From contig CAYGDX010000002.1 of the NCBI GenBank assembly GCA_964348825.1, forward strand, positions 195,013 to 259,012: a DNA stretch of 64,000 bases, read 5' to 3'. Positions 39,058 to 50,994 of this stretch are shown piece after piece (position 1 is the stretch's first letter; each line of letters opens with the position of its first letter). This stretch comes from an uncultured Gammaproteobacteria bacterium. GTDB lineage: Bacteria; Patescibacteriota; Patescibacteriia; Veblenbacterales; UBA10138. Below the pieces are notes generated by a model. That model did no database searches. It was not told where the DNA came from and was given only the letters and a program-made list of their open reading frames with translations. A program made the position numbers and the translations under genes.

Positions 39058-39137
39058 AAATTAATGTTATATTTAATGATTAATCAGCCATTATATTATA
39101 ACGGCTGAAGGGGAAAATAACAAATATTTCCTTACCG

Positions 39138-39297
39138 CTTCTCTAGAGAAGTGGTGCAAGAATCGCCGCCTCGGTCTCCGTATTTAAACAGTGCTCGTCA
39201 AACGAGCTGGCTCGGCCTATGCACAGCGGCCACAAACACGGCCTCGCCGGACGCTCGTTTGCCTTGCGCTCTGTACAAATACTACGACAGGACGGCA
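39138..39297 (-). repeat. Structured GC-rich dispersed repeat, copy 3 (reverse orientation), with a terminal palindrome cttctctagagaag
   Basis: Reverse complement aligns with copies 1 and 2 across the long-hairpin core. Confidence 0.75.
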
Positions 39298-39300
39298 AAA

Positions 39301-39335
39301 CTTTCGGATTTCGATATTCGGATTTAGGATTTGAG
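39301..39335. repeat. Heptamer tract (TCGGATT family) adjacent to repeat copy 3
   Basis: ctttcggatttcgatattcggatttaggatttgag. Confidence 0.6.
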
Positions 39336-40241: not shown

Positions 40242-40290
40242 AAAATAAAAATCCCCTGATTGTTGTTACAATCAGGGGTAAATAGCTTGT

Positions 40291-40500
40291 TTAGCTCACC
40301 GCTTTGGCGGCTTTACTAATTGCCTCTTCACGTGTATCAGCCGAACCTATATATTTGCCATCTTTAATAATATCAAAACCGCCATTACCGGAGGTATCAA
40401 ATGATATTAAACGCATAATAGGGTCGTCTGGCTTACGCTGCACCTCTGCTTCACTCTTACCATCACTTGATGTAATGGTGGCAATAGTTTTGTTGGCCAT
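40291..40500 (-). CDS. Small hypothetical protein (69 aa) downstream of operator site 1
   Basis: ORF only. The palindromic operator lies 70 bp upstream. Confidence 0.4.
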   Translation of the reverse strand: MANKTIATITSSDGKSEAEVQRKPDDPIMRLISFDTSGNGGFDIIKDGKYIGSADTREEAISKAAKAVS

Positions 40501-40567
40501 AATAGACCTTTCTATGTTTCACTCTACAGCTCCACTGTAGTCTGGGGTGATTTGTCACCTGTTTATT

Positions 40568-40595
40568 TGTATCAACGTATTAACACATTGATACA
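40568..40595. promoter_or_regulatory. 28-bp palindromic operator-like site 1 (TGTATCAACGTATTAACACATTGATACA); candidate YerC/TrpR-family binding site
   Basis: Near-perfect dyad with a GTTAAC centre. Near-identical copy at 47261-47287 and related copy at 47649-47677. Confidence 0.55.
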
Positions 40596-41450
40596 ATTTT
40601 GCAATTGATCCACAATTGGTATTTTATTAGAAGATAAATTTATTATTCCCCTAGGTAAATCCTGTGGATAAAGTACGCGATTATTAATATTCCCAATCTC
40701 TTTCCAAAGTAATATGGTTTGCTCTAAACACATTACCGAAAATTTAACTTGTTTATTTTCCGGAATTGAAGCCCATTTAACTGGATTACCAAATGGTAAA
40801 ATATACGGCACGCCGATATTACCACTTCCAACCAACTGGCGTCCGGAAAATGGCACACCTGGATAAAAATCACGCTCACACACCTCATCAATAACTTCAT
40901 CAAAAACAAAAAGACTCTTAACCTCTACACCCCTACCCTGCAATCTCTCAACCCCCTCCTTAATAGCTATTGATGTACAAATTGTTGGCACTTGAATACC
41001 CGACCCACCAAACATATCAACCACCTCGATCATTTGCTGACCACTGAATACCACATCATCAACTAACACGATGCGATTCAAATTAAAATTAGCCAATAAA
41101 TCAAGTTGCTCTTTTATGTTGGTAGCACCAGCACGACTGCCCAAACCCACATCCAAACCTTTCTCATCAACTAACCGTGTTATATTTAATTGATGTTTGG
41201 TTTTGTAATATACTCGATCAAGCGAAACTGGTGTGAGGTTAGTTTTCTCAACCAGAGATTTAATCCCCACAAAATTTATCTCTGGCATAAATCTAAAATC
41301 TGGAAATATCCGCTTCACAAATATCGAAAAGTTAAGACGGAGTTCTGCAAAAAAATCTTCTGTTGGTAACGTAAAATTTTTTTGCTTCGCCCACTCAGCT
41401 AATAACGCCTCAATATCACCTGAAACAATATAACATTTATCCTTACGCAT
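40572..41450 (-). CDS. Phosphoribosyltransferase-like protein (PRPP-binding motif)
   Basis: RIVLVDDVVFSGQQM resembles the PRTase type I PRPP-binding loop. 292 aa. Confidence 0.5.
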   Translation of the reverse strand: MRKDKCYIVSGDIEALLAEWAKQKNFTLPTEDFFAELRLNFSIFVKRIFPDFRFMPEINFVGIKSLVEKTNLTPVSLDRVYYKTKHQLNITRLVDEKGLDVGLGSRAGATNIKEQLDLLANFNLNRIVLVDDVVFSGQQMIEVVDMFGGSGIQVPTICTSIAIKEGVERLQGRGVEVKSLFVFDEVIDEVCERDFYPGVPFSGRQLVGSGNIGVPYILPFGNPVKWASIPENKQVKFSVMCLEQTILLWKEIGNINNRVLYPQDLPRGIINLSSNKIPIVDQLQNCINVLIR

Positions 41451-42276
41451 TGTAATTCTCCTCTGTTATTTTTTTAATCAACTCAATCACACCAGCCGTC
41501 CGTTTTTCTTTGGCTATAAACTGACAGCAAGCTTTAAAATCGGAGCTAGCATTCGCGACGCCACAATGAATGATCTTTTTGTCACCTAGATAATCGGACA
41601 TGCTATTTCCTATCATATAAATGACATTACTATCCACCGTAAATTGCTCCGTAGCTATACTTTTTTCTGTTAGCCTGTGGTGAATTATGCAGATTCCATA
41701 TAAAATATTTTTATCAATATTCCATTGGCATTCTACGCCATTCTCTACACCAATCTCCAATAGAATATTCACTACTTCATCCAAACTTCTAGTAGTGGTT
41801 TGCCATTTATTATCCACTCGTTCACGAACATAACATGAAAAGCTTCGTAATCGCAGCGAATTAATTAATATTGACACTTGTGGTAATACTTCAACAGCTG
41901 AATACGAAGGGAGTTTGTTTGCTATAGTATTAACACTTCCTGTAACAACTAGATACTTGTTGTCATCCATTAGCCTCTCCACCACTTTCTTACGAAATGT
42001 AAAGAAATATTCTGCCTCCTTGATGGTATAAAATGGCTCACAAGCGATATTGGCTAATATTACGCCACCCTTCTCAGCTATAATTGGACCTTTCATTCCC
42101 CATAATTCAGCTTGATGCTGTAAGGTCATTAATGATGAGTCAGAATTGAGACCTATCTCATACCCTCTAGTTTGCGCTCTTGCAACAGCGGCTTTTAATA
42201 CTGAATGACTTACTGTCAATTTATAATTTTTATCCGTCAATGTTTCATCAACATCGATTAAAATAATTTTTCTCAT
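41443..42276 (-). CDS. HAD superfamily hydrolase (phosphatase)
   Basis: Motif I ILIDVDETLTD, motif IV MIGNSMSDY. Confidence 0.65.
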   Translation of the reverse strand: MRKIILIDVDETLTDKNYKLTVSHSVLKAAVARAQTRGYEIGLNSDSSLMTLQHQAELWGMKGPIIAEKGGVILANIACEPFYTIKEAEYFFTFRKKVVERLMDDNKYLVVTGSVNTIANKLPSYSAVEVLPQVSILINSLRLRSFSCYVRERVDNKWQTTTRSLDEVVNILLEIGVENGVECQWNIDKNILYGICIIHHRLTEKSIATEQFTVDSNVIYMIGNSMSDYLGDKKIIHCGVANASSDFKACCQFIAKEKRTAGVIELIKKITEENYNA

Positions 42277-42285
42277 GCTTGTTCC

Positions 42286-43227
42286 TTATGATATAGCTCT
42301 TGTTAGAGCAATGGTGGCCTGTTGACCGTAAATAATTGCCTGCTGTATATCTGTATTACGACGGACATACGCAGAAAGAATTAATTGTAAAGCTTTGCCT
42401 AATTCAAGCATTTGCTCTATGTTATAGCGTTTACACCCCAATACCTTAGGTAGAGTGTTTAATGCAAAATTACTCAACATTTCAACGCCTTCACTAGAAT
42501 TAGGTAAATGATAAATATCACGTGCAGATACAATGAACTGCCCAATACTAATTGCGGTATGCCCTAAATAAGTATTCTGCCGCCAGGGGTCAATATAAGT
42601 AATTCCATCAGCCTTAAGAAATATGTTATCCGGCGTAAAATCCAATAGAAATAATGCCACATAATCGCTGGGTACTTCTACTATTGGATCATTAATTAGG
42701 TCAAAAAAATTTGCTGGTAATATTCCAGAAATCTCTTTGGCAAATGACCGAATATAATTTATTGTTTCTGTAATAGACTTTTTGCCATATTGACCACCAA
42801 AATCGTACCTAACAGTTAGCGTAGTAAGTTTCTCCACAGAGCTTTGTAAAAGATTAAAACACTCAATACTTGATTGACTTGCTATCTTAAAACAAGGTTC
42901 TAAATAACGCATAACTAATACTGTTAAGCCATCTACTATTTTCACCGCATAATCATTCGGAATTAAAATACTCGCACCTATTTTTTTGATTCCAGCATAA
43001 CCAACTATATTGTCCTTCAAATGATTCAAATCCGGAGGATTAGTTTCTGAAAGATAAAATTTTGCTACAAATTCTACTCCGTCTGATACTCGCTGCAATT
43101 TAATAATAGAGGCATTAGTGTGCCCTCCATTAATATCGGCTACATAACGTAATCCTAATTGCCATTCGAGTTGAGCAATAAAGTCATGGAATATTCTAAG
43201 CTTTTTTTTTCGATTGTTAAAATTCAT
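42286..43227 (-). CDS. Protein-kinase-like fold phosphotransferase (APH/choline-kinase-like)
   Basis: Catalytic-loop-like LLDFTPDNIFL and YIDPW (Brenner / DxxxxN ... IDxE-type). Confidence 0.45.
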   Translation of the reverse strand: MNFNNRKKKLRIFHDFIAQLEWQLGLRYVADINGGHTNASIIKLQRVSDGVEFVAKFYLSETNPPDLNHLKDNIVGYAGIKKIGASILIPNDYAVKIVDGLTVLVMRYLEPCFKIASQSSIECFNLLQSSVEKLTTLTVRYDFGGQYGKKSITETINYIRSFAKEISGILPANFFDLINDPIVEVPSDYVALFLLDFTPDNIFLKADGITYIDPWRQNTYLGHTAISIGQFIVSARDIYHLPNSSEGVEMLSNFALNTLPKVLGCKRYNIEQMLELGKALQLILSAYVRRNTDIQQAIIYGQQATIALTRAIS

Positions 43228-43270
43228 TTTTTCTCTTTCAAAAATATGTTTTTATTTTCGGGTTTATAAA

Positions 43271-43304
43271 GATAACCCCTTCCCAAACTTGAGAAGGGGT
43301 TATC
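43271..43304 (-). terminator. Terminator-like hairpin downstream of the HAD gene at 43349-44128
   Basis: gataaccccttcccaaacttgagaaggggttatc followed by a T-rich run on the minus strand. Confidence 0.5.
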
Positions 43305-43348
43305 TTAAAAAAATATTAAAACAACCCTTTCTCAAGTTCATTAAAAAA

Positions 43349-44128
43349 CTATAAATTATTTTTATCAATATATTGTAAAATTTCTACCACGCCTTGGGTG
43401 TACAATTTTTTAGCAACATATATAGCCTTATTTTTCAATTTTTTCTCTGCATTACCAACTGCAAAAAATGCATCTACTACTCGCTGTGTTGACAAATCTG
43501 CTGAATCGTCACCGATCATAAATAACTTCGTCTTAGAAAAATATTTCTTACGAAGAATTGTTAGTGCTCTGCCTTTATCCATCAACCGCGGACTGATCAA
43601 AACATTTGAGAATATTGGTGATACCTGAACATTATATTTAAATTTCGAATCTCTTTTGAGTAATCGCTTTAACCTTATAGCTGCTTTATAATCTCTTTTG
43701 CCATATGTAAAGACATGAATACTGGCAGTCCATTTACGATATTTATTAATAGCCCAAACCAAAGGTATTGATTTAAATTTATCGAAAGGATAATTTACTG
43801 TATCCACTAATTTTATAACCGCGCCATTCTGAACTGCTAAATTATTTAATCTATCAACTATTTGTTCGCGAATAACTCGACTTTTAACCAGAAAGAATTG
43901 TTTATTTTGAAAAAAATAAACTACGCCACCCTCACCAATTATTGGCCCATTAATACCAAGTAATTTGCTGATTAATTTTAAATCCCGTTCCGACCGATTA
44001 GAATTCAAACCAAATAAATATCCCTTTTTTGAAAGTTTTCTAATATACTTTTGTACCAACCTCGAGTTCATTGTATAATCGGGCTTTAATAGTGTTCCAT
44101 CTATATCAAAAAATAAAAGGGTTTTCAT
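43349..44128 (-). CDS. HAD superfamily hydrolase (HAD-IIB-like phosphatase)
   Basis: Motif I LLFFDIDGTLLKPD, motif IV MIGDDSADL. Confidence 0.65.
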   Translation of the reverse strand: MKTLLFFDIDGTLLKPDYTMNSRLVQKYIRKLSKKGYLFGLNSNRSERDLKLISKLLGINGPIIGEGGVVYFFQNKQFFLVKSRVIREQIVDRLNNLAVQNGAVIKLVDTVNYPFDKFKSIPLVWAINKYRKWTASIHVFTYGKRDYKAAIRLKRLLKRDSKFKYNVQVSPIFSNVLISPRLMDKGRALTILRKKYFSKTKLFMIGDDSADLSTQRVVDAFFAVGNAEKKLKNKAIYVAKKLYTQGVVEILQYIDKNNL

Positions 44129-44676
44129 ATATTTTTAATTTTAGCAATCTGTTTAATAACTATTGCTACTGCTTCTTGAGCTGTTTTAGCAGATATTATT
44201 TTTATTTTTTTTCTATCATCTAGGTATTGGTTAGCTAGTTTTTCGCTCCATCCACCACTATTTTGTAACACAACTATTGGAATACTGGCTTGATATGCTA
44301 TGGCGATTTCTGTGAGTGTGCCTGAACCACCATTAAGTGCAATAATTGCATCACAACTCAAAATCAAAGCTAATTCTCGACCACCACCTCTTTCCAAACC
44401 GCTAGCTATTACCACATCCACGTTATTTTTCTCAAAAATATCCAACCCCTTACCATAGGTCACACCAACAGTTAAACCTCCAGCTTTTTTAGCTCCACGA
44501 CAAGCCGCTGTTGACAATGAATCATAGTCTTTCTCAGCGCCAAACATTAAAGTAGCACCATTTTTCGCAATCCAATAACCAACCTCTTCAGCCGCTTTTT
44601 GCAACTGTTTAGTATATTTAAGATCGGCACTGGAGCCCATAACACCAATTTGTATTTTTCTAAAATTCTTATTCAT
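44125..44676 (-). CDS. LOG-family / TIGR00725-like protein (SLOG fold; nucleotide 5'-monophosphate nucleosidase-like)
   Basis: IGVMGSS, then GG...G in RGAKKAGGLTVGV, then ALNGGSGTLTEI, matching LOG motifs GGGxGxMG and PGGxGTxEE. Confidence 0.6.
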   Translation of the reverse strand: MNKNFRKIQIGVMGSSADLKYTKQLQKAAEEVGYWIAKNGATLMFGAEKDYDSLSTAACRGAKKAGGLTVGVTYGKGLDIFEKNNVDVVIASGLERGGGRELALILSCDAIIALNGGSGTLTEIAIAYQASIPIVVLQNSGGWSEKLANQYLDDRKKIKIISAKTAQEAVAIVIKQIAKIKNI

Positions 44677-44744
44677 ATAATAAAAAATAATAATTAAAAT
44701 TCTTCCTTATACCAAATAATGAAGGTTCACGAACTAGTATAAAG

Positions 44745-44772
44745 ATGGGAGAAAATAATTAATCTCTCCCAT
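44745..44772 (-). terminator. Hairpin between the two sub-operons of the cluster
   Basis: atgggagaaaataattaatctctcccat. Confidence 0.35.
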
Positions 44773-44798
44773 GTTAAATATTTAATTTTCTACTTCTT

Positions 44799-45767
44799 TT
44801 AATTATTTAATTTTAATCCTTGTATCATGCGTTCACGGTCATATAAATCCGCCGTTTGTTCCCGAGGAAACAAATATGGATTTACTCCCATAAGCCATAC
44901 TGAATCAGATTCGGCCTTAAGCATTAATGGGTTATGTCGAGGAGATACAATAGCCGTACTATTACCCGTCACAAAGTAACGAACCAACGGATCAATTAAC
45001 CTTACTGGTCTCGTAGTATATTGAGCCAAAACTTCGCCCGTAAATTGAAATCGTTCAGTATCAATCCTAAATTCTGATTCCGAAACAATTATAGTTTTTT
45101 CCTCCTTAGCCAAATCTGCTAAGATTAACAATCCTTCTGCGCCTTTTAAACTAGCCATTTGAACTTGAGAAGGTGTTATACTTTTACTAACTTCCATTTT
45201 CAAAACGTTTAATAGCTGAGTGGCACTGGTTGTTAATGATAATGTTTGAGATGTTCCTTCGCTTATTTTATTAATTACTGATTTGCTGACCGCTACCGCA
45301 AACACCGTATAGCCAACTTGATAAATTGGCAGTGAGTATTTAAGTGCCAACTGTGCCACAAATGGCGGTATCAGCATATTATGAAATGCTTCAATGCCAT
45401 TTTCAAGTAACACATTTGCCGCTTCTTCCTGCACCGTAATGCAGAACGGCTCACCACTTAGTGTTACTCCGCCAAAAAAGGAAAATCGTTCGTCATCTCT
45501 CATATGACTATAGAGAAATTGATCAAAATCGTGAGATTGTGGATTTGCTCTAAAGATATAAAATTCAGGTCGATTAATTGACCCATTCGGATGCGGTAGA
45601 GCTAAACTATTACCACTGCGAAATGGCCATTTTTTTAAACCAATCTCTTTTCCATAATAAATCCGTAGATCTCCATGGTTATCACCAACTCTACTTGGTA
45701 AATCAGATGATTTTTCCACCAAAGTTAAAGATGTGTTTCCAGAAATTATTTGTTTCATACAAACCAC
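44799..45767 (-). CDS. Hypothetical protein (322 aa)
   Basis: ORF in an operon-like arrangement; no motif recognised. Confidence 0.4.
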   Translation of the reverse strand: MVCMKQIISGNTSLTLVEKSSDLPSRVGDNHGDLRIYYGKEIGLKKWPFRSGNSLALPHPNGSINRPEFYIFRANPQSHDFDQFLYSHMRDDERFSFFGGVTLSGEPFCITVQEEAANVLLENGIEAFHNMLIPPFVAQLALKYSLPIYQVGYTVFAVAVSKSVINKISEGTSQTLSLTTSATQLLNVLKMEVSKSITPSQVQMASLKGAEGLLILADLAKEEKTIIVSESEFRIDTERFQFTGEVLAQYTTRPVRLIDPLVRYFVTGNSTAIVSPRHNPLMLKAESDSVWLMGVNPYLFPREQTADLYDRERMIQGLKLNN

Positions 45768-45813
45768 CTATTCTATTTTTGATTGATTGTTATTTATTTT
45801 TAATTTTCTACAA

Positions 45814-46551
45814 CTACCAACGGGCGCCTATTTTACTAGGCGGTGTTGTTTTTATGTGACGTTTGACAGTGTATTCTAGTTCCATAATCCTAGCATGTGG
45901 TACCAGAACGCGATAAACTTTCCAGAATTTTTTTTTAATCTGGCTAGACAAACTATCAAACGTCGGCTCATAGTGTATAAATTCTGTTATTTCATGATTA
46001 GGTCTTGCCGGCCGTTTTCGAAAGCAGTCAGTAAACACATCACTACCAACTTCAATCTTTTGTGAGTCAAAGTCCACTGTTAAAAAAATTGAAGAATAAA
46101 TACCACGATGATCTCTAAAACCAGCCCATTTTTCTTTTTTTTCTGCTTCCGGTGGTTTCATAAAACGATCATCTGGCGATTGAAGTAGATTTTTATAAAT
46201 AGTAATTTTATTGCCGAAGTATTCATCACTACCTGCTTCAGACCACACCACCTGCACATTAAAAAATTCCTTACTAGCAATATTTTTCTTTACCCCCAAA
46301 GAAACTACTATCTCATTTATTTTTTTCTCAAACAATTTTGGCAATGTTGCATCTAATTTAGATTCCGCCAAAAAACAAAGCACTGGAATCATTATATTAG
46401 CGTACATTTTATTATTTATTACCGGCGAAAAATAATACTGGACTATTCTACGACCAATTTTGAAGCAAATAATCATGCCGATTGCCGATCCAGTTGCATA
46501 AGCAGTATTTTCATAGCATCTCCTAAGAGTATCTCTATATCGTTTTTTCAT
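45814..46551 (-). CDS. Hypothetical protein (245 aa)
   Basis: ORF only. Confidence 0.4.
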   Translation of the reverse strand: MKKRYRDTLRRCYENTAYATGSAIGMIICFKIGRRIVQYYFSPVINNKMYANIMIPVLCFLAESKLDATLPKLFEKKINEIVVSLGVKKNIASKEFFNVQVVWSEAGSDEYFGNKITIYKNLLQSPDDRFMKPPEAEKKEKWAGFRDHRGIYSSIFLTVDFDSQKIEVGSDVFTDCFRKRPARPNHEITEFIHYEPTFDSLSSQIKKKFWKVYRVLVPHARIMELEYTVKRHIKTTPPSKIGARW

Positions 46552-46599
46552 AACGACTCCTATTTTATTAATTAATAACTTTTATAAGGATATACATTT

Positions 46600-47046
46600 C
46601 TATTCTGATGGTATTTTTACATGTTTTATATTCCAACCATATGTTTCACGTCGATAAATTTTTTTACCAAACTTAGTTAACTTCCAATTATTACTCCATA
46701 TCTGAGGCATAAGGTCACATGCCATACAATTCTCACATATTTCAATTACCTTTTTTTTAAAATCAATTGAAATAGATTGGTCATATAAAAGTTCTTTACA
46801 TTCAATATGAAAAGGACAATTATATTTTTCATTCCATGAAGCTATAATTCGACGGTACACGAGCTCCCCGTTATAAATTTCTTGCTCAAATTTATTAATT
46901 TGATCCTCCAAAGATTCAACGGTCAAATCATTTTTCGTTGCTAGAAACTCAATTATTGGCTGAGTCAATAAATACCCACTACTCCAAATAGCTACTTGAA
47001 TAATACAGCCGTCAAGCCTCCGGTAAGTTATACAACCTTGGGTCAT
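46600..47046 (-). CDS. Hypothetical Cys-rich protein (148 aa), possibly metal-binding
   Basis: Cys clusters CPFHIEC and CENCMAC. Confidence 0.4.
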   Translation of the reverse strand: MTQGCITYRRLDGCIIQVAIWSSGYLLTQPIIEFLATKNDLTVESLEDQINKFEQEIYNGELVYRRIIASWNEKYNCPFHIECKELLYDQSISIDFKKKVIEICENCMACDLMPQIWSNNWKLTKFGKKIYRRETYGWNIKHVKIPSE

Positions 47047-47122
47047 AGTGTTTGCCTTTCATGAAATTCTACAGTGTTCATAATTTTATCTTTCCTTTTT
47101 TAATTATTTAATTGTAAATGAA

Positions 47123-47149
47123 CAACCCCTCTCACTTTGAGAGGGGTTG
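47123..47149. other. Stable hairpin caacccctctcactttgagaggggttg in the leader between operator site 2 and the first cluster gene
   Basis: Seen directly. Related to the hairpin at 43271-43304. Confidence 0.5.
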
Positions 47150-47260
47150 GGAATGGTGTTTAATAAAATTACACAGCACTCCTCACCGCTTCAAGCGAGA
47201 GTTAAAAACTAAATTGTGATGATGATTAATTAATAAACTCATAAAATTGTTATTTTTCTT

Positions 47261-47287
47261 TGTATCAACGTGTTAACACATTGATAC
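47261..47287. promoter_or_regulatory. Palindromic operator-like site 2 (TGTATCAACGTGTTAACACATTGATAC)
   Basis: Differs from site 1 at one position; GTGTTAACAC core. Confidence 0.55.
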
Positions 47288-47320
47288 TGTTATAAAAATG
47301 ATTAAAATTAACTAATTAAA

Positions 47321-47620
47321 TTACTTTAGTAGCCCAAGTCGCGCGAGGACTAACTTGTATCCACCCATTCCCTGATTCAACCATTGGGCTACACGAGCTA
47401 CAGTAGTAGTGCTCATACCTAATTCTTTAGCAATTTCTCGGTAATCGCGGTCACGCGCCAGCATTTTTACAGCTTGAAAGCGATCTGACATATCTACCAA
47501 TTCATCAGGTGTGCACAAATCACGCATAAAACGCTTAATTTCGTCTTTGGTCTTCAATTTAAGCATAGCGGTAAATAATTCATCCGCCGCCGCACTATTC
47601 CACTTTTTAGCTTTTTTCAT
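47321..47620 (-). CDS. yerC: YerC/YecD family TrpR-like DNA-binding protein
   Basis: 99 aa. ...ELFTAMLKLKTKDEIKRFMRDLCTPDELVDMSDRFQAVKMLARDRDYREIAKELGMSTTTVARV... closely follows the YerC/YecD family pattern. Confidence 0.8.
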   Translation of the reverse strand: MKKAKKWNSAAADELFTAMLKLKTKDEIKRFMRDLCTPDELVDMSDRFQAVKMLARDRDYREIAKELGMSTTTVARVAQWLNQGMGGYKLVLARLGLLK

Positions 47621-47648
47621 ACAATTACAAATAAATCATTAAAATACT

Positions 47649-47677
47649 CTGTATCACTGTGTTAACACACTAACACA
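47649..47677. promoter_or_regulatory. Operator-like site 3 (CTGTATCACTGTGTTAACACACTAACACA) in the divergent yerC / glyA promoter region
   Basis: Left arm TGTATCA and core GTGTTAACAC are conserved; the right arm is diverged. Confidence 0.45.
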
Positions 47678-47782
47678 AGTTATTTTAACTGTCAAACTAT
47701 TACCTGTGGATAACTCAATTTATCCTTAAAAACACCACTAAAATGGACAAAACTACTAAAACACGCTAATATAAAAACACTT

Positions 47783-49997: not shown

Positions 49998-50369
49998 TCA
50001 CAAACCCAATATAATTTTGGTTTGTTTAATATCTTGCTCAATTTGTTTTTTTATATCTTCCAAATTAGTTGTGCGTATCACGTCGCGTAATTTTTGCACC
50101 ATTTCCACTTGTAAATTCTGTCCATATAGATCATCTGAAAAATCGAGTAAATAAACTTCTTGGCGTGGCTCGCCAGAAGCTTCTTGTTCTACACCAGATA
50201 CCAAAACTCCAGCATATTTTGTGTCGCCTAAAAAAACCCAAACTGCATAAATGCCAGTTTGGGCACGAAAGCTATCCTCAATTAATTTCAAATTAGCCGT
50301 AGGATAACCAATTTGTCTGCCCTCACCCTTACCCCGTATCACTCGGCCAGTTATTATTTCCTTAATCAT
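49998..50369 (-). CDS. Riboflavin kinase domain protein (monofunctional, no FAD synthetase domain)
   Basis: GRVIRGKGEGRQIGYPTANL ... pattern of the RibF C-terminal kinase domain. 123 aa. Confidence 0.65.
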   Translation of the reverse strand: MIKEIITGRVIRGKGEGRQIGYPTANLKLIEDSFRAQTGIYAVWVFLGDTKYAGVLVSGVEQEASGEPRQEVYLLDFSDDLYGQNLQVEMVQKLRDVIRTTNLEDIKKQIEQDIKQTKIILGL

Positions 50370-50994
50370 GGCGGCGCAAACTTAAATCATATTGAATATC
50401 TTCCAACTTTCGCAAATGTTGTTTAGCTTGATCAAATTTACTGCGCAAACTTCCAGTTAAATTCATAGCCGCAAGTTCCCCCACTGTTGCAGTTGCCACT
50501 TCTACTAAAATTTTGATTGTTTTTTTATCACCACCTGTCGCTTGCTTCACCGCATAACGTGCTAATTCTCCTAACAAATCAGAAATCGCTCCTAAATAAA
50601 CATCAGTTGGAATTTTATACCCCGTAACTGGCACGATTTTTTTAGTTTCTAAATAACTCACAAATAATTTAGCTTCCACATATTCTTCTAGCGCTGCTCG
50701 CCAACTGCCCAAGTATTCTATTTCCTCCACTTTTTTTAACACTGCCTTGCCATTTGTAAAAAATCCTTCTGATTTTTTAAGTAAAGTATTGGCTTCCACT
50801 AAATTATCGCGTTGCGCCGCAAAAATTGCCTGTTTAGCTAAAGCTTGAGCTTGATTGGCAAAATCAGATAATTGCCGCCTACCCGCCGCCGCTTTTTGAT
50901 AGGCCTTACCTAAATCATTTAAAAATTTTGTATTATTCATATGGTTAATATCACCAAGATACCACACTAACAACAAATTGCCAAATAAACTCAA
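50362..50994 (-). CDS. Hypothetical all-helical protein (translin-family-like?)
   Basis: 210-aa ORF overlapping the kinase gene by 8 nt; weak resemblance only. Confidence 0.35.
   Translation of the reverse strand: MSLFGNLLLVWYLGDINHMNNTKFLNDLGKAYQKAAAGRRQLSDFANQAQALAKQAIFAAQRDNLVEANTLLKKSEGFFTNGKAVLKKVEEIEYLGSWRAALEEYVEAKLFVSYLETKKIVPVTGYKIPTDVYLGAISDLLGELARYAVKQATGGDKKTIKILVEVATATVGELAAMNLTGSLRSKFDQAKQHLRKLEDIQYDLSLRRHD

Follow-up and report, generated by a model that had tools for sequence, protein, structure and literature searches.

A candidate histidine-limitation regulon in Patescibacteria that combines a HisR-type repressor with a His-codon leader at a SLOG and phosphoribosyltransferase gene cluster

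We use comparative sequence analysis to study a gene cluster in a 64,000-nt stretch of DNA from a Patescibacteria (candidate phyla radiation, CPR) bacterium; this whole stretch is called the window below, and related loci and contigs are referred to by L numbers. The cluster, all of whose genes are on the minus strand, brings together yerC, which encodes a TrpR-family regulator, three palindromic dyads, a leader open reading frame (ORF) with a run of histidine codons, and genes for a SLOG protein, a phosphoribosyltransferase (PRTase)-family protein and several companions. We consider it probable, at roughly 0.7, that the cluster forms a regulon responding to histidine limitation, controlled in two layers by a repressor and an attenuator. 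Computation gives us the sites, the synteny, a covariation between operator and recognition helix, a leader family with RNA covariation, and a neighborhood of histidine genes. We take the signal to be histidine or His-tRNA because the regulator is HisR-like, most of its Patescibacteria orthologues use the HisR consensus operator, the leader contains His codons, and hisS, hisG and HAL (histidine ammonia-lyase) genes are linked to the locus in relatives.

The regulator gene is the following:

47321-47620, minus strand: yerC, a 99-aa YerC/YecD (HisR-type) TrpR-family repressor, from profile matches.

The protein scores 79.7 bits against TIGR02531 (cutoff 42.2) and 78.1 bits against PF01371 (cutoff 27), which upholds the YerC/TrpR-like regulator named in a first-pass annotation of this DNA, and it falls under the cutoff of the TrpR equivalog (31.2 vs 67.25 bits). 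Its best matches in the PDB are the HisR proteins 3G1C, 3FRW and 3KOR, and it aligns without gaps to the E. eligens HisR 3G1C at 44% identity. The YerC protein of B. subtilis is a predicted histidine repressor, HisR, whose operator consensus cacTTTAnnnnnnTAAAgtg is a 20-bp palindrome (PMC9413887), and HisR-DNA binding, improved by histidine, has been confirmed in vitro for the Ruminococcus gnavus protein (PMC9413887). We would expect the window protein to bind DNA likewise, with histidine as its co-repressor.

A 28-bp dyad with the consensus TGTATCAAyGTrTTAACACrTTGATACA is present in exactly three copies in the window, as against none in dinucleotide shuffles:

40568-40595: operator site 1, a class II dyad (classes are defined below), sequence TGTATCAACGTATTAACACATTGATACA, from a pattern search.
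47261-47288: operator site 2, a class II dyad ending in ...GATACT, from a pattern search.
47650-47677: operator site 3, a class II dyad, sequence TGTATCACTGTGTTAACACACTAACACA, over the yerC promoter and the predicted site of autoregulation.

The first-pass annotation had reported three such dyads and no others; both the copies and their uniqueness are borne out, with the coordinates of sites 2 and 3 shifted by one base from those it gave. Site 3 covers the interval 30-57 bp ahead of the yerC ATG and overlaps the -10 element (47667-47672) of a minus-strand promoter that we read from sequence as TTGACA(47690-47695)-17 nt-TAGTGT, and it is about 67 bp upstream of the candidate -35 element of glyA. 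Site 2 begins 33 bp past the yerC stop codon and is 215 bp upstream of the first cluster ORF, ahead of the leader. Site 1 overlaps the 3' end of the PRTase-like ORF (40572-41450, minus), including its final codons and its stop, and is located 68 bp upstream of a small ORF, p69. Each 28-mer can be read as overlapping half-sites of the type TGTnTnAAC with a spacing of 8-9 bp and, by analogy with TrpR, is probably bound by tandem YerC dimers.

Comparison with related genomes shows which protein these dyads belong with. Scanning one genome per species for the PRTase gene gives 80 loci, and in these we distinguish two classes of operator. Class I, ACTTTAN6TAAAGT, is the Firmicutes HisR consensus (PMC9413887); allowing at most one mismatch, we find 47 matches, with 30 upstream of yerC (often as abutting pairs), 9 upstream of the SLOG gene, 4 just past the PRTase stop and 4 elsewhere, while shuffles give 6-12 matches and none at the yerC, SLOG or post-PRTase positions. 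The HisR consensus operator is present in about 27 related Patescibacteria loci. The window sites do not match the 20-bp HisR operator, and the window lineage falls in a subgroup in which both the helix and the operator are altered. The family consensus of this second class is TGTrTyAAyrTrTTAAyAyrTTrAyACA; class II dyads are found upstream of yerC in L011, L023, L038 and L085, past yerC in L030, L052, L054 and L057, and in the divergent promoter between yerC and hisG in L079. The arrangement at site 3, with a dyad on the -10 behind TTGACA, is repeated in L085, L011, L023 and L038, and the position of site 2, directly past yerC and about 200 bp before the next gene, is repeated in L085, L052, L054, L057 and L030. 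Past the PRTase gene, in positions like that of site 1, there are class I dyads in L014, L015 and L027, and L002 has the window-type dyad at the site 1 position, but there a terminator follows instead of a gene and p69 is absent.

Inspection of the recognition helices reveals that the two classes of operator go with two kinds of protein. Helices of the form xSS[TA]T[IV]AR[IV]x[KR]WL occur with class I operators in about 24 of 27 genes (at most one mismatch), and helices of the form xSTTTV[AST]RVxxWL occur with class II operators in eight genes out of eight; the helix of the window protein, MSTTTVARVAQWL, is of the type seen with class II. Because operator class co-varies with the recognition helix, we predict that YerC binds the dyads, and this is the strongest computational evidence that we have for it. 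The assignment of the dyads as operators of the adjacent YerC-family protein, which the first-pass annotation had also made, is strongly supported on sequence grounds, by the recurrent yerC-SLOG-PRTase synteny in the 80 loci, by this covariation and by the identity of the commoner class, class I, to the published HisR consensus.

We also observe a perfect DnaA-box 9-mer, TTATCCACA, at 40663-40671 and 47705-47713 (minus), so that two of the three dyads have a copy 30-70 bp upstream. In L015, L027, L034, L042, L085 and L030 this 9-mer is also found 8-17 nt upstream of the -35 element at YerC-controlled promoters of both operator classes, and it occurs 32 times in 1.47 Mb of loci where about 11 copies are expected. 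A second factor may bind there.

Now we consider the second layer of control. The first-pass annotation had passed over the interval between site 2 and the first cluster gene, in which we find a leader:

47183-47242, minus strand: leader ORF MSLLINHHHNLVFNSRLKR, 19 codons, beginning MSLLINHHHNL...
47117-47230, minus strand: His leader attenuator RNA, a match to covariance model R1, with its terminator stem at 47123-47149.

Three consecutive His codons, CAT-CAT-CAC, occupy 47216-47224 of the leader; the terminator-like stem has 12 pairs and the minimum free energy z-score is -3.07. The layout of L085 is identical, with glyA pointing away from yerC, then the operator, a leader (MDNLFNLNLNHHNTT...), a terminator with a U-tract and a homologue of U148, the product of the first cluster gene. 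Homologous leaders are present in L085, L052, L054, L057 and a wider family.

How specific this leader is to the cluster can be seen from a blind scan of 81 loci (the 80 genome loci and L001, a copy of the window locus) for small intergenic ORFs in which three or more His codons follow one another. The scan returns 22 such ORFs, with 17 directly upstream of the PRTase gene, two upstream of a GNAT gene that precedes the PRTase gene, one upstream of the SLOG gene, one of the window type and only one in an unrelated place. We aligned 13 leaders and built the covariance model R1 from these 13, with the window leader excluded. The alignment has the conserved sequence CATCATCAC..CTCTTCC.GGAAGAGATTGG...CAATCCCTTCC.AGAAGGGATTTTT; its 1:2 helix and its 3:4 terminator helix are 94.5% paired, and the 2:3 antiterminator is 89.5% paired with four compensatory pairs (both sides changed), a covariation score that none of 500 shuffles attains. 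R1 matches 43 of the 80 loci, on the strand of the PRTase gene and just upstream of it, and in a region search it scores the window leader at 30.5 bits (E 5.7e-6); it also finds L085 and L117. Across the family, one to four His codons stand at a common aligned position. Judging from the aligned sequences, we predict that the leader family is a classical ribosome-mediated attenuator that reads the availability of His-tRNA. Rfam has no match to the window region at E <= 1 and none to the L020 leader at E <= 10, so that neither is placed in RF00514; at gathering thresholds it returns tRNAs only, and at relaxed thresholds nothing credible around the cluster or the family leader.

Another hairpin in the window touches on this family:

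43272-43303, minus strand: terminator-like hairpin before the kinase gene, resembling the terminator part of the His leader, without His codons.

This hairpin (AACCCCTTCTC...GGGAAGGGGTT) and a short ORF upstream of it, MNLRKGCF, resemble the 3' half of the His leader family, and the hairpin is a partial match to R1 at 11.5 bits. It looks like a degenerate copy of a PRTase-type leader. In L002 (325-1918), the closest relative (PRTase 90% identical), the gene order is SLOG>GNAT>PRT and a leader (MLFVKIKFYQLLHSHNFFF...) stands before the GNAT gene.

The genes around the PRTase gene point in the same direction as the regulatory sites. The PRTase family has more than 618 "hypothetical" homologues, whose source names are nearly all Patescibacteria lineages. 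A SLOG gene adjoins the PRTase gene in 62 of the 80 loci and yerC is present in 36, the usual order being yerC>SLOG>PRT on one strand; the conserved neighborhood of YerC, SLOG and PRTase, with or without HAD and kinase genes, that the first-pass annotation had anticipated does recur in related genomes. The genes in between are swapped even among near relatives, as seen from SLOG>HAD>kinase>HAD>PRT in the window and the shorter order in L002. Within 10 kb of the PRTase gene, where by our own estimate about 2 of 80 loci would be expected for any single-copy gene, the neighbors verified with Pfam are:

Histidyl-tRNA synthetase (hisS): 29 of 80 loci.
PfkB-like kinase: 14 of 80 loci.
Aromatic amino-acid lyase (HAL-type): 13 of 80 loci.
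HAD-IA phosphatase: 13 of 80 loci.
GNAT: 8 of 80 loci.
Nucleoside hydrolase: 6 of 80 loci.
Long-form HisG: 5 of 80 loci.

The hisS gene is often directly downstream of the PRTase gene. In the L070 representative we read by eye, in the lyase, the Ser-His selectivity motif that we take to mark histidine ammonia-lyases. HisE follows HisG in L079, and HisI is adjacent in L063. The PRTase-like protein is unlikely to be a substitute for HisG, as a canonical long-form hisG stands beside the PRTase gene in L016, L071 and L079. The Saccharibacteria locus L071 (4272-12217) has the order HisG>SLOG>PfkB>HAD>PRT>HisS> opposite a divergent LOG<HisD<HAD-IIIA<, with no hisA, hisF, hisH, hisB or hisC within 10 kb, and may represent an unusual organization of the histidine pathway.

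In the window, the cluster downstream of the leader is composed of the following features:

46600-47046, minus strand: U148, a Cys-rich 148-aa ORFan, the first gene past the attenuator.
45814-46551, minus strand: U245, a 245-aa ORF with no family match.
44799-45767, minus strand: U322, a 322-aa ORFan.
44745-44772, minus strand: terminator-like hairpin between U322 and the SLOG gene.
44125-44676, minus strand: SLOG (TIGR00725-like / PF18306 LDcluster4) protein, a conserved core gene.
43349-44128, minus strand: HAD-IIB (Cof-type) phosphatase, 259 aa, a clear match to PF08282 at 75.9 bits.
42286-43227, minus strand: kinase-like protein, from APH/choline-kinase-type motifs.
41443-42276, minus strand: HAD-IIB-like phosphatase, 277 aa, a marginal match to PF08282 (23.7 bits vs cutoff 20.9).
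40572-41450, minus strand: novel type-I PRTase-family protein, a conserved core gene, with the phosphoribosyl pyrophosphate (PRPP) loop VLVDDVVFSG.
40291-40500, minus strand: p69, a 69-aa ORF with a Shine-Dalgarno-like AAAGG.
40253-40278, minus strand: intrinsic terminator that ends the cluster, an 11-pair stem and then ATTTTTATTT.

The two core proteins differ in how well they fit known families. The SLOG protein scores 113.5 bits against PF18306 (cutoff 26.3) and is under the cutoff of TIGR00725 (86.6 vs 106.9); it keeps the LOG-type motif GGSGTLTE, its motifs are very strongly conserved, and its nearest solved structures are TM1055 (1RCU) and a Moco carrier protein. The PRTase-like protein has the PRPP-binding loop and the type I PRTase fold, with the conserved region DEVCERDFYPGVP...PYILPFGNP...WASIP; it reaches 21.3 bits against PF00156 (cutoff 26.3), is far under the cutoffs of all NCBIfam equivalogs, and has no structural match for about 165 of its 292 residues, at the N- and C-terminal ends. 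For the 277-aa HAD-like protein, the PF08282 match spans the N-terminal 76 residues only, a phosphoglycolate-phosphatase-like N-terminus. The kinase-like protein of the window has no Pfam match and no PDB sequence match; its family shares the invariants K56 (the VxK lysine), D196-F-x-x-x-N201 (DFTPDN in 7 of 8 members) and I212-D-P-W, and two of the eight homologues match PF01636 (APH) weakly (E 0.013). Of the earlier gene calls, then, those of SLOG and the 259-aa HAD are clear, that of the 277-aa HAD is marginal, that of the PRTase is sub-threshold in Pfam and NCBIfam, and that of the kinase is by motifs only.

The three proteins nearest the leader had no assignment in the first-pass annotation and family searches give them none, since neither Pfam nor NCBIfam nor PADLOC yields a match of meaningful score to U148, U245 or U322. 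U148 matches only itself among 5.8 billion proteins, with a diverged homologue at the equivalent position in L085; U322 matches only itself among the same 5.8 billion proteins and among 1.84 billion representatives, and its single-sequence AF2 (AlphaFold2) model is unusable (pLDDT 31); U245 is not found in the 80 genome loci. All three look like lineage-specific insertions behind a regulated leader. Past the operator at site 1, p69 has no family match in Pfam, NCBIfam or PADLOC and no similarity to the small ORF behind the L030 operator. Because of the internal terminator-like hairpins before the SLOG and kinase genes, the cluster may comprise three or four transcription units. The earlier picture of dyads framing one operon is too simple, as these hairpins split the cluster. 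Most other genomes have the leader directly before the PRTase gene; in the window genome, site 2 and the leader would control the SLOG and PRTase genes from further upstream.

These features suggest how the two layers would act. Bound at site 3, YerC would occlude the -10/+1 region of its own promoter and so regulate itself; bound at site 2, it would keep transcription from running into the cluster; and at site 1, where it would sit on the 3' end of the PRTase gene and the p69 promoter region, it could serve as a roadblock, as a loop anchor or in the control of p69. Transcripts that get past site 2 would then meet the attenuator, with its His-codon ORF, alternative hairpins and terminator, and ribosomes stalling at the His codons when charged tRNA-His is scarce would permit read-through. 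Both layers predict expression only under limiting histidine. As for the products, we picture the SLOG and PRTase enzymes as interconverting base, riboside and 5'-ribotide and so redistributing phosphoribosyl units (PRPP/ribose-5-phosphate) in histidine shortage, with variable companions that would include HAD phosphatases and the kinase-like protein here and PfkB, GNAT or nucleoside hydrolase elsewhere. Such interconversion of base, nucleoside and nucleotide, which the first-pass annotation had also proposed, is plausible but unproven. A narrower idea, possible and at present rather doubtful, is that the SLOG/PRTase core, together with its exchangeable partners (kinase, HAD, PfkB, GNAT and nucleoside hydrolase), has a histidine-supply function: starting from a scavenged imidazole or ribosyl compound, a PRPP-dependent salvage or bypass pathway would make histidine or a metabolite able to take its place. 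It would explain the dual control by a HisR-type repressor and by His-tRNA, as well as the association with hisS, hisG, hisD and HAL even in presumed histidine auxotrophs.

Several points weigh against the histidine-limitation reading. In the window leader itself the antiterminator is weakly paired (5-6 pairs) and the U-tract is poor (UUGUUCAUUU), both features being clearer in L085 and the main family, and some family leaders have a single His codon, or HRH, HNH or HSH. The window operator differs from the HisR consensus, and two acidic positions proposed in the HisR paper to contact histidine are R and Q/K in the Patescibacteria proteins; for these two reasons a molecule other than histidine could be the effector. 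The window lacks his, hisS and HAL genes: we checked it with cluster representatives for hisS, HAL, hisG, PfkB and similar genes, finding none. The internal hairpins leave it uncertain how far the leader and operator reach toward the SLOG and PRTase genes in the window genome, and many of the class II dyads in metagenomes are at gene 3' ends or beside unrelated genes (thrS-miaA, malic enzyme, phosphoenolpyruvate (PEP)-utilizing enzymes). Finally, DNA binding, effector and attenuation are what we infer from these data, and the enzymatic role is a guess.

The metagenome data come from an exact-pattern scan of JGI metagenome contigs for the window-type dyad. It is present in 49 contigs, in about 13 of which it adjoins a yerC gene; long contigs carry one to three copies each, and a contig of 585 kb has just one. 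Because there are so few copies per long contig, we conclude that the dyad is not a dispersed repeat. In L097 and L124 a class II dyad is located 103-129 bp upstream of hisS. Other window-type dyads occupy the thrS-miaA spacer in L088, L089, L104 and L121, follow the malic enzyme gene in L091, L099 and L106, or adjoin genes of PEP-utilizing enzymes in L087, L107 and L120. Those beside genes with no obvious link to histidine often sit between convergent 3' ends, and may reflect either a broader regulon in some lineages or a second, different role of the palindrome.

That last observation raises the question of whether the dyads are operators at all. They could be a lineage-specific intergenic palindrome (an RNA hairpin, terminator or repeat) that stands near yerC by chance, given that many metagenome copies lie between convergent genes or just past stop codons, as do site 1 and its L002 counterpart, and that the dyad would fold as an RNA hairpin of 12-13 bp. 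We regard this as the least probable of the alternatives, since the contigs with a dyad beside yerC are independent of one another and copies are few, the dyad overlaps the -10 behind TTGACA at yerC promoters, operator class switches along with the YerC helix, and the stems are AU-rich with no U-tract. If the dyads are operators, the question becomes what the repressor senses. The first-pass annotation had the YerC-like repressor sensing a nucleobase or nucleoside and controlling nucleotide salvage or a modified-nucleotide pathway, with glyA-folD tied in through site 3. The enzyme set (PRTase, LOG-like, HADs and kinase-like, with PfkB and nucleoside hydrolase in relatives) does suit interconversion of base, nucleoside and nucleoside monophosphate, the proposed histidine-contact residues of HisR are conserved in part only, and in both the window and L085 glyA and yerC are divergently oriented. 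We nevertheless find it unlikely: a His-codon leader stands directly behind site 2 and, in more than half of the genome loci, upstream of the PRTase gene, the class I operator and the HisR consensus are identical, and hisS, hisG and HAL are recurrent neighbors, so that a HisR-like regulator and its surroundings point to histidine or His-tRNA as the signal. The one-carbon link fares no better, because glyA is adjacent to yerC only in the window lineage and L085, FolD is within 10 kb of the PRTase gene in 2 of the 80 loci and GlyA in none, and site 3 is on the yerC -10, far from the candidate glyA promoter; this geometry and the lack of conservation do not support glyA-folD as members of the regulon.

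Two further explanations would keep the regulatory devices and change their meaning. In one, what the leader senses is how well tRNA-His can decode, through the queuosine-34 status of NAY-decoding tRNAs for instance, and the enzymes would salvage a modified base. LOG-like nucleotide N-glycosidases and nucleoside hydrolases are enzyme types of queuine salvage, Asn, Tyr or Asp codons often border the His run (INHHHN, SHHHN, HHHNY, HHHD), and four contigs have a class II dyad upstream of the tRNA-modification gene miaA. We think this very unlikely, as the conserved AAT past the His run may reflect RNA sequence and not coding, a HisR-type repressor with hisS, hisG, hisD and HAL neighbors indicates histidine itself, and no tgt or que genes are seen in the PRTase neighborhoods. 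In the other, SLOG and PRTase form a nucleotide-signaling conflict or defense module of the SLOG/PRTase-CE type for which YerC acts as the transcriptional switch. Pairs of SLOG and PRTase genes have come up in the discussion of conflict systems (PMC6459960), and the PRTase gives weak matches to PF24390 PRTase-CE (22.8 bits) and to PADLOC PRTase_III-A (E 2e-4). There is little chance that this is correct, because the PF24390 score is below its cutoff of 27 and the Pfam and PADLOC matches are both sub-cutoff and confined to the PRPP loop, sensor, cyclase and effector partners are absent, both proteins are highly conserved and syntenic with the housekeeping gene hisS phylum-wide, and His-specific attenuation is a metabolic signature. 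As PADLOC gave nothing beyond these sub-threshold PRPP-loop matches, we reject the defense reading.

Outside the cluster, two other features of the window deserve mention. At 39130-39310, between a bactofilin-like ORF and a DUF1749 hydrolase gene, about 180 nt of GC-rich non-coding DNA fold into an extended rod-like hairpin (z -3.5 for the minus and -3.25 for the plus strand). This segment has no credible Rfam match and is a candidate structured non-coding RNA, perhaps 6S- or SRP (signal recognition particle)-like. At 50362-50994 and 49998-50369 (minus), a Translin-family protein (PF01997) is encoded beside a short flavokinase-domain protein, both called from precomputed Pfam marks on an identical Logan contig. 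Translin is mainly archaeal and eukaryotic.

Patescibacteria make up a large share of bacterial diversity and are generally regarded as host-dependent for both amino acids and nucleotides, and their gene regulation is almost unstudied. The locus offers a directly testable regulator-operator pair with a natural specificity switch (two operator classes and two helices), and a phylum-wide His-codon attenuator that is absent from Rfam. It also singles out two highly conserved "hypothetical" enzymes that, by the logic of their expression, would be important when histidine runs out; the substrate of SLOG and PRTase, once identified, could bring to light, in epibiotic bacteria, a new pathway linked to histidine or PRPP, or else a starvation response. 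Leader and operator could serve as histidine-responsive genetic parts for the few cultivable Saccharibacteria.

Comparison with known systems shows where each part has a precedent. The nearest is the HisR regulon of Firmicutes and other phyla (Ashniev et al. 2022, PMC9413887), a study whose coverage did not extend to Patescibacteria. Our system shares with it the TIGR02531 family, autoregulation, the 44% identity to E. eligens HisR, the use of cacTTTAnnnnnnTAAAgtg by most Patescibacteria orthologues, and relatives with sites at hisG and hisS. It differs in having a SLOG protein and a new PRTase family as targets where HisR has histidine biosynthesis and transport genes, in its extra operator copies at operon 3' ends and, in the window lineage, in its 28-bp operator and altered helix. 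E. coli TrpR with its trp, aroH and trpR operators is like the window system in the TrpR fold, a GTTAAC-centered palindrome with TGTA...TACA ends, autoregulation, and probable tandem dimers on overlapping half-sites about 8 bp apart; unlike it, the window has an operator of 28 bp vs 20 bp, no tryptophan genes nearby, and a regulator that scores below the TrpR equivalog cutoff. With the enterobacterial his attenuator (RF00514) and the short Firmicutes His leaders (PMC9413887), the Patescibacteria leader has in common consecutive His codons, mutually exclusive 1:2/2:3/3:4 helices, an intrinsic terminator and the read-through expected under scarce His-tRNA. It lacks sequence or covariance-model similarity to Rfam families, has one to four His codons only, governs a PRTase/SLOG (sometimes hisS) cluster and not hisGDCBHAFI, and in the window lineage stands in series with a HisR-type operator.

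For the enzymes, the closest comparison is with the LOG-family nucleotide 5'-monophosphate nucleosidases (LOG, PpnN/YgdH), which act with purine and pyrimidine PRTases in E. coli amino-acid starvation. The likeness is that a LOG-type Rossmannoid protein (GGxGTxxE) and a type I PRTase, switched on by amino-acid limitation, could redistribute the pools of base and ribose-5-phosphate/PRPP. The differences are that control of the Patescibacteria cluster would be transcriptional and histidine-specific and not (p)ppGpp-allosteric, that its SLOG protein belongs to the uncharacterized TIGR00725 / LDcluster4 branch, and that its PRTase carries the long structurally unmatched N- and C-terminal segments noted above. 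Our literature search found no paper that describes this regulon or that combines HisR with Patescibacteria, in agreement with the first-pass annotation, which had not recognized it as a described system. Measured against that literature, what is new here is the SLOG/PRTase targets, the second operator class with its matching helix, the two devices in series, and the occurrence of the whole in Patescibacteria.

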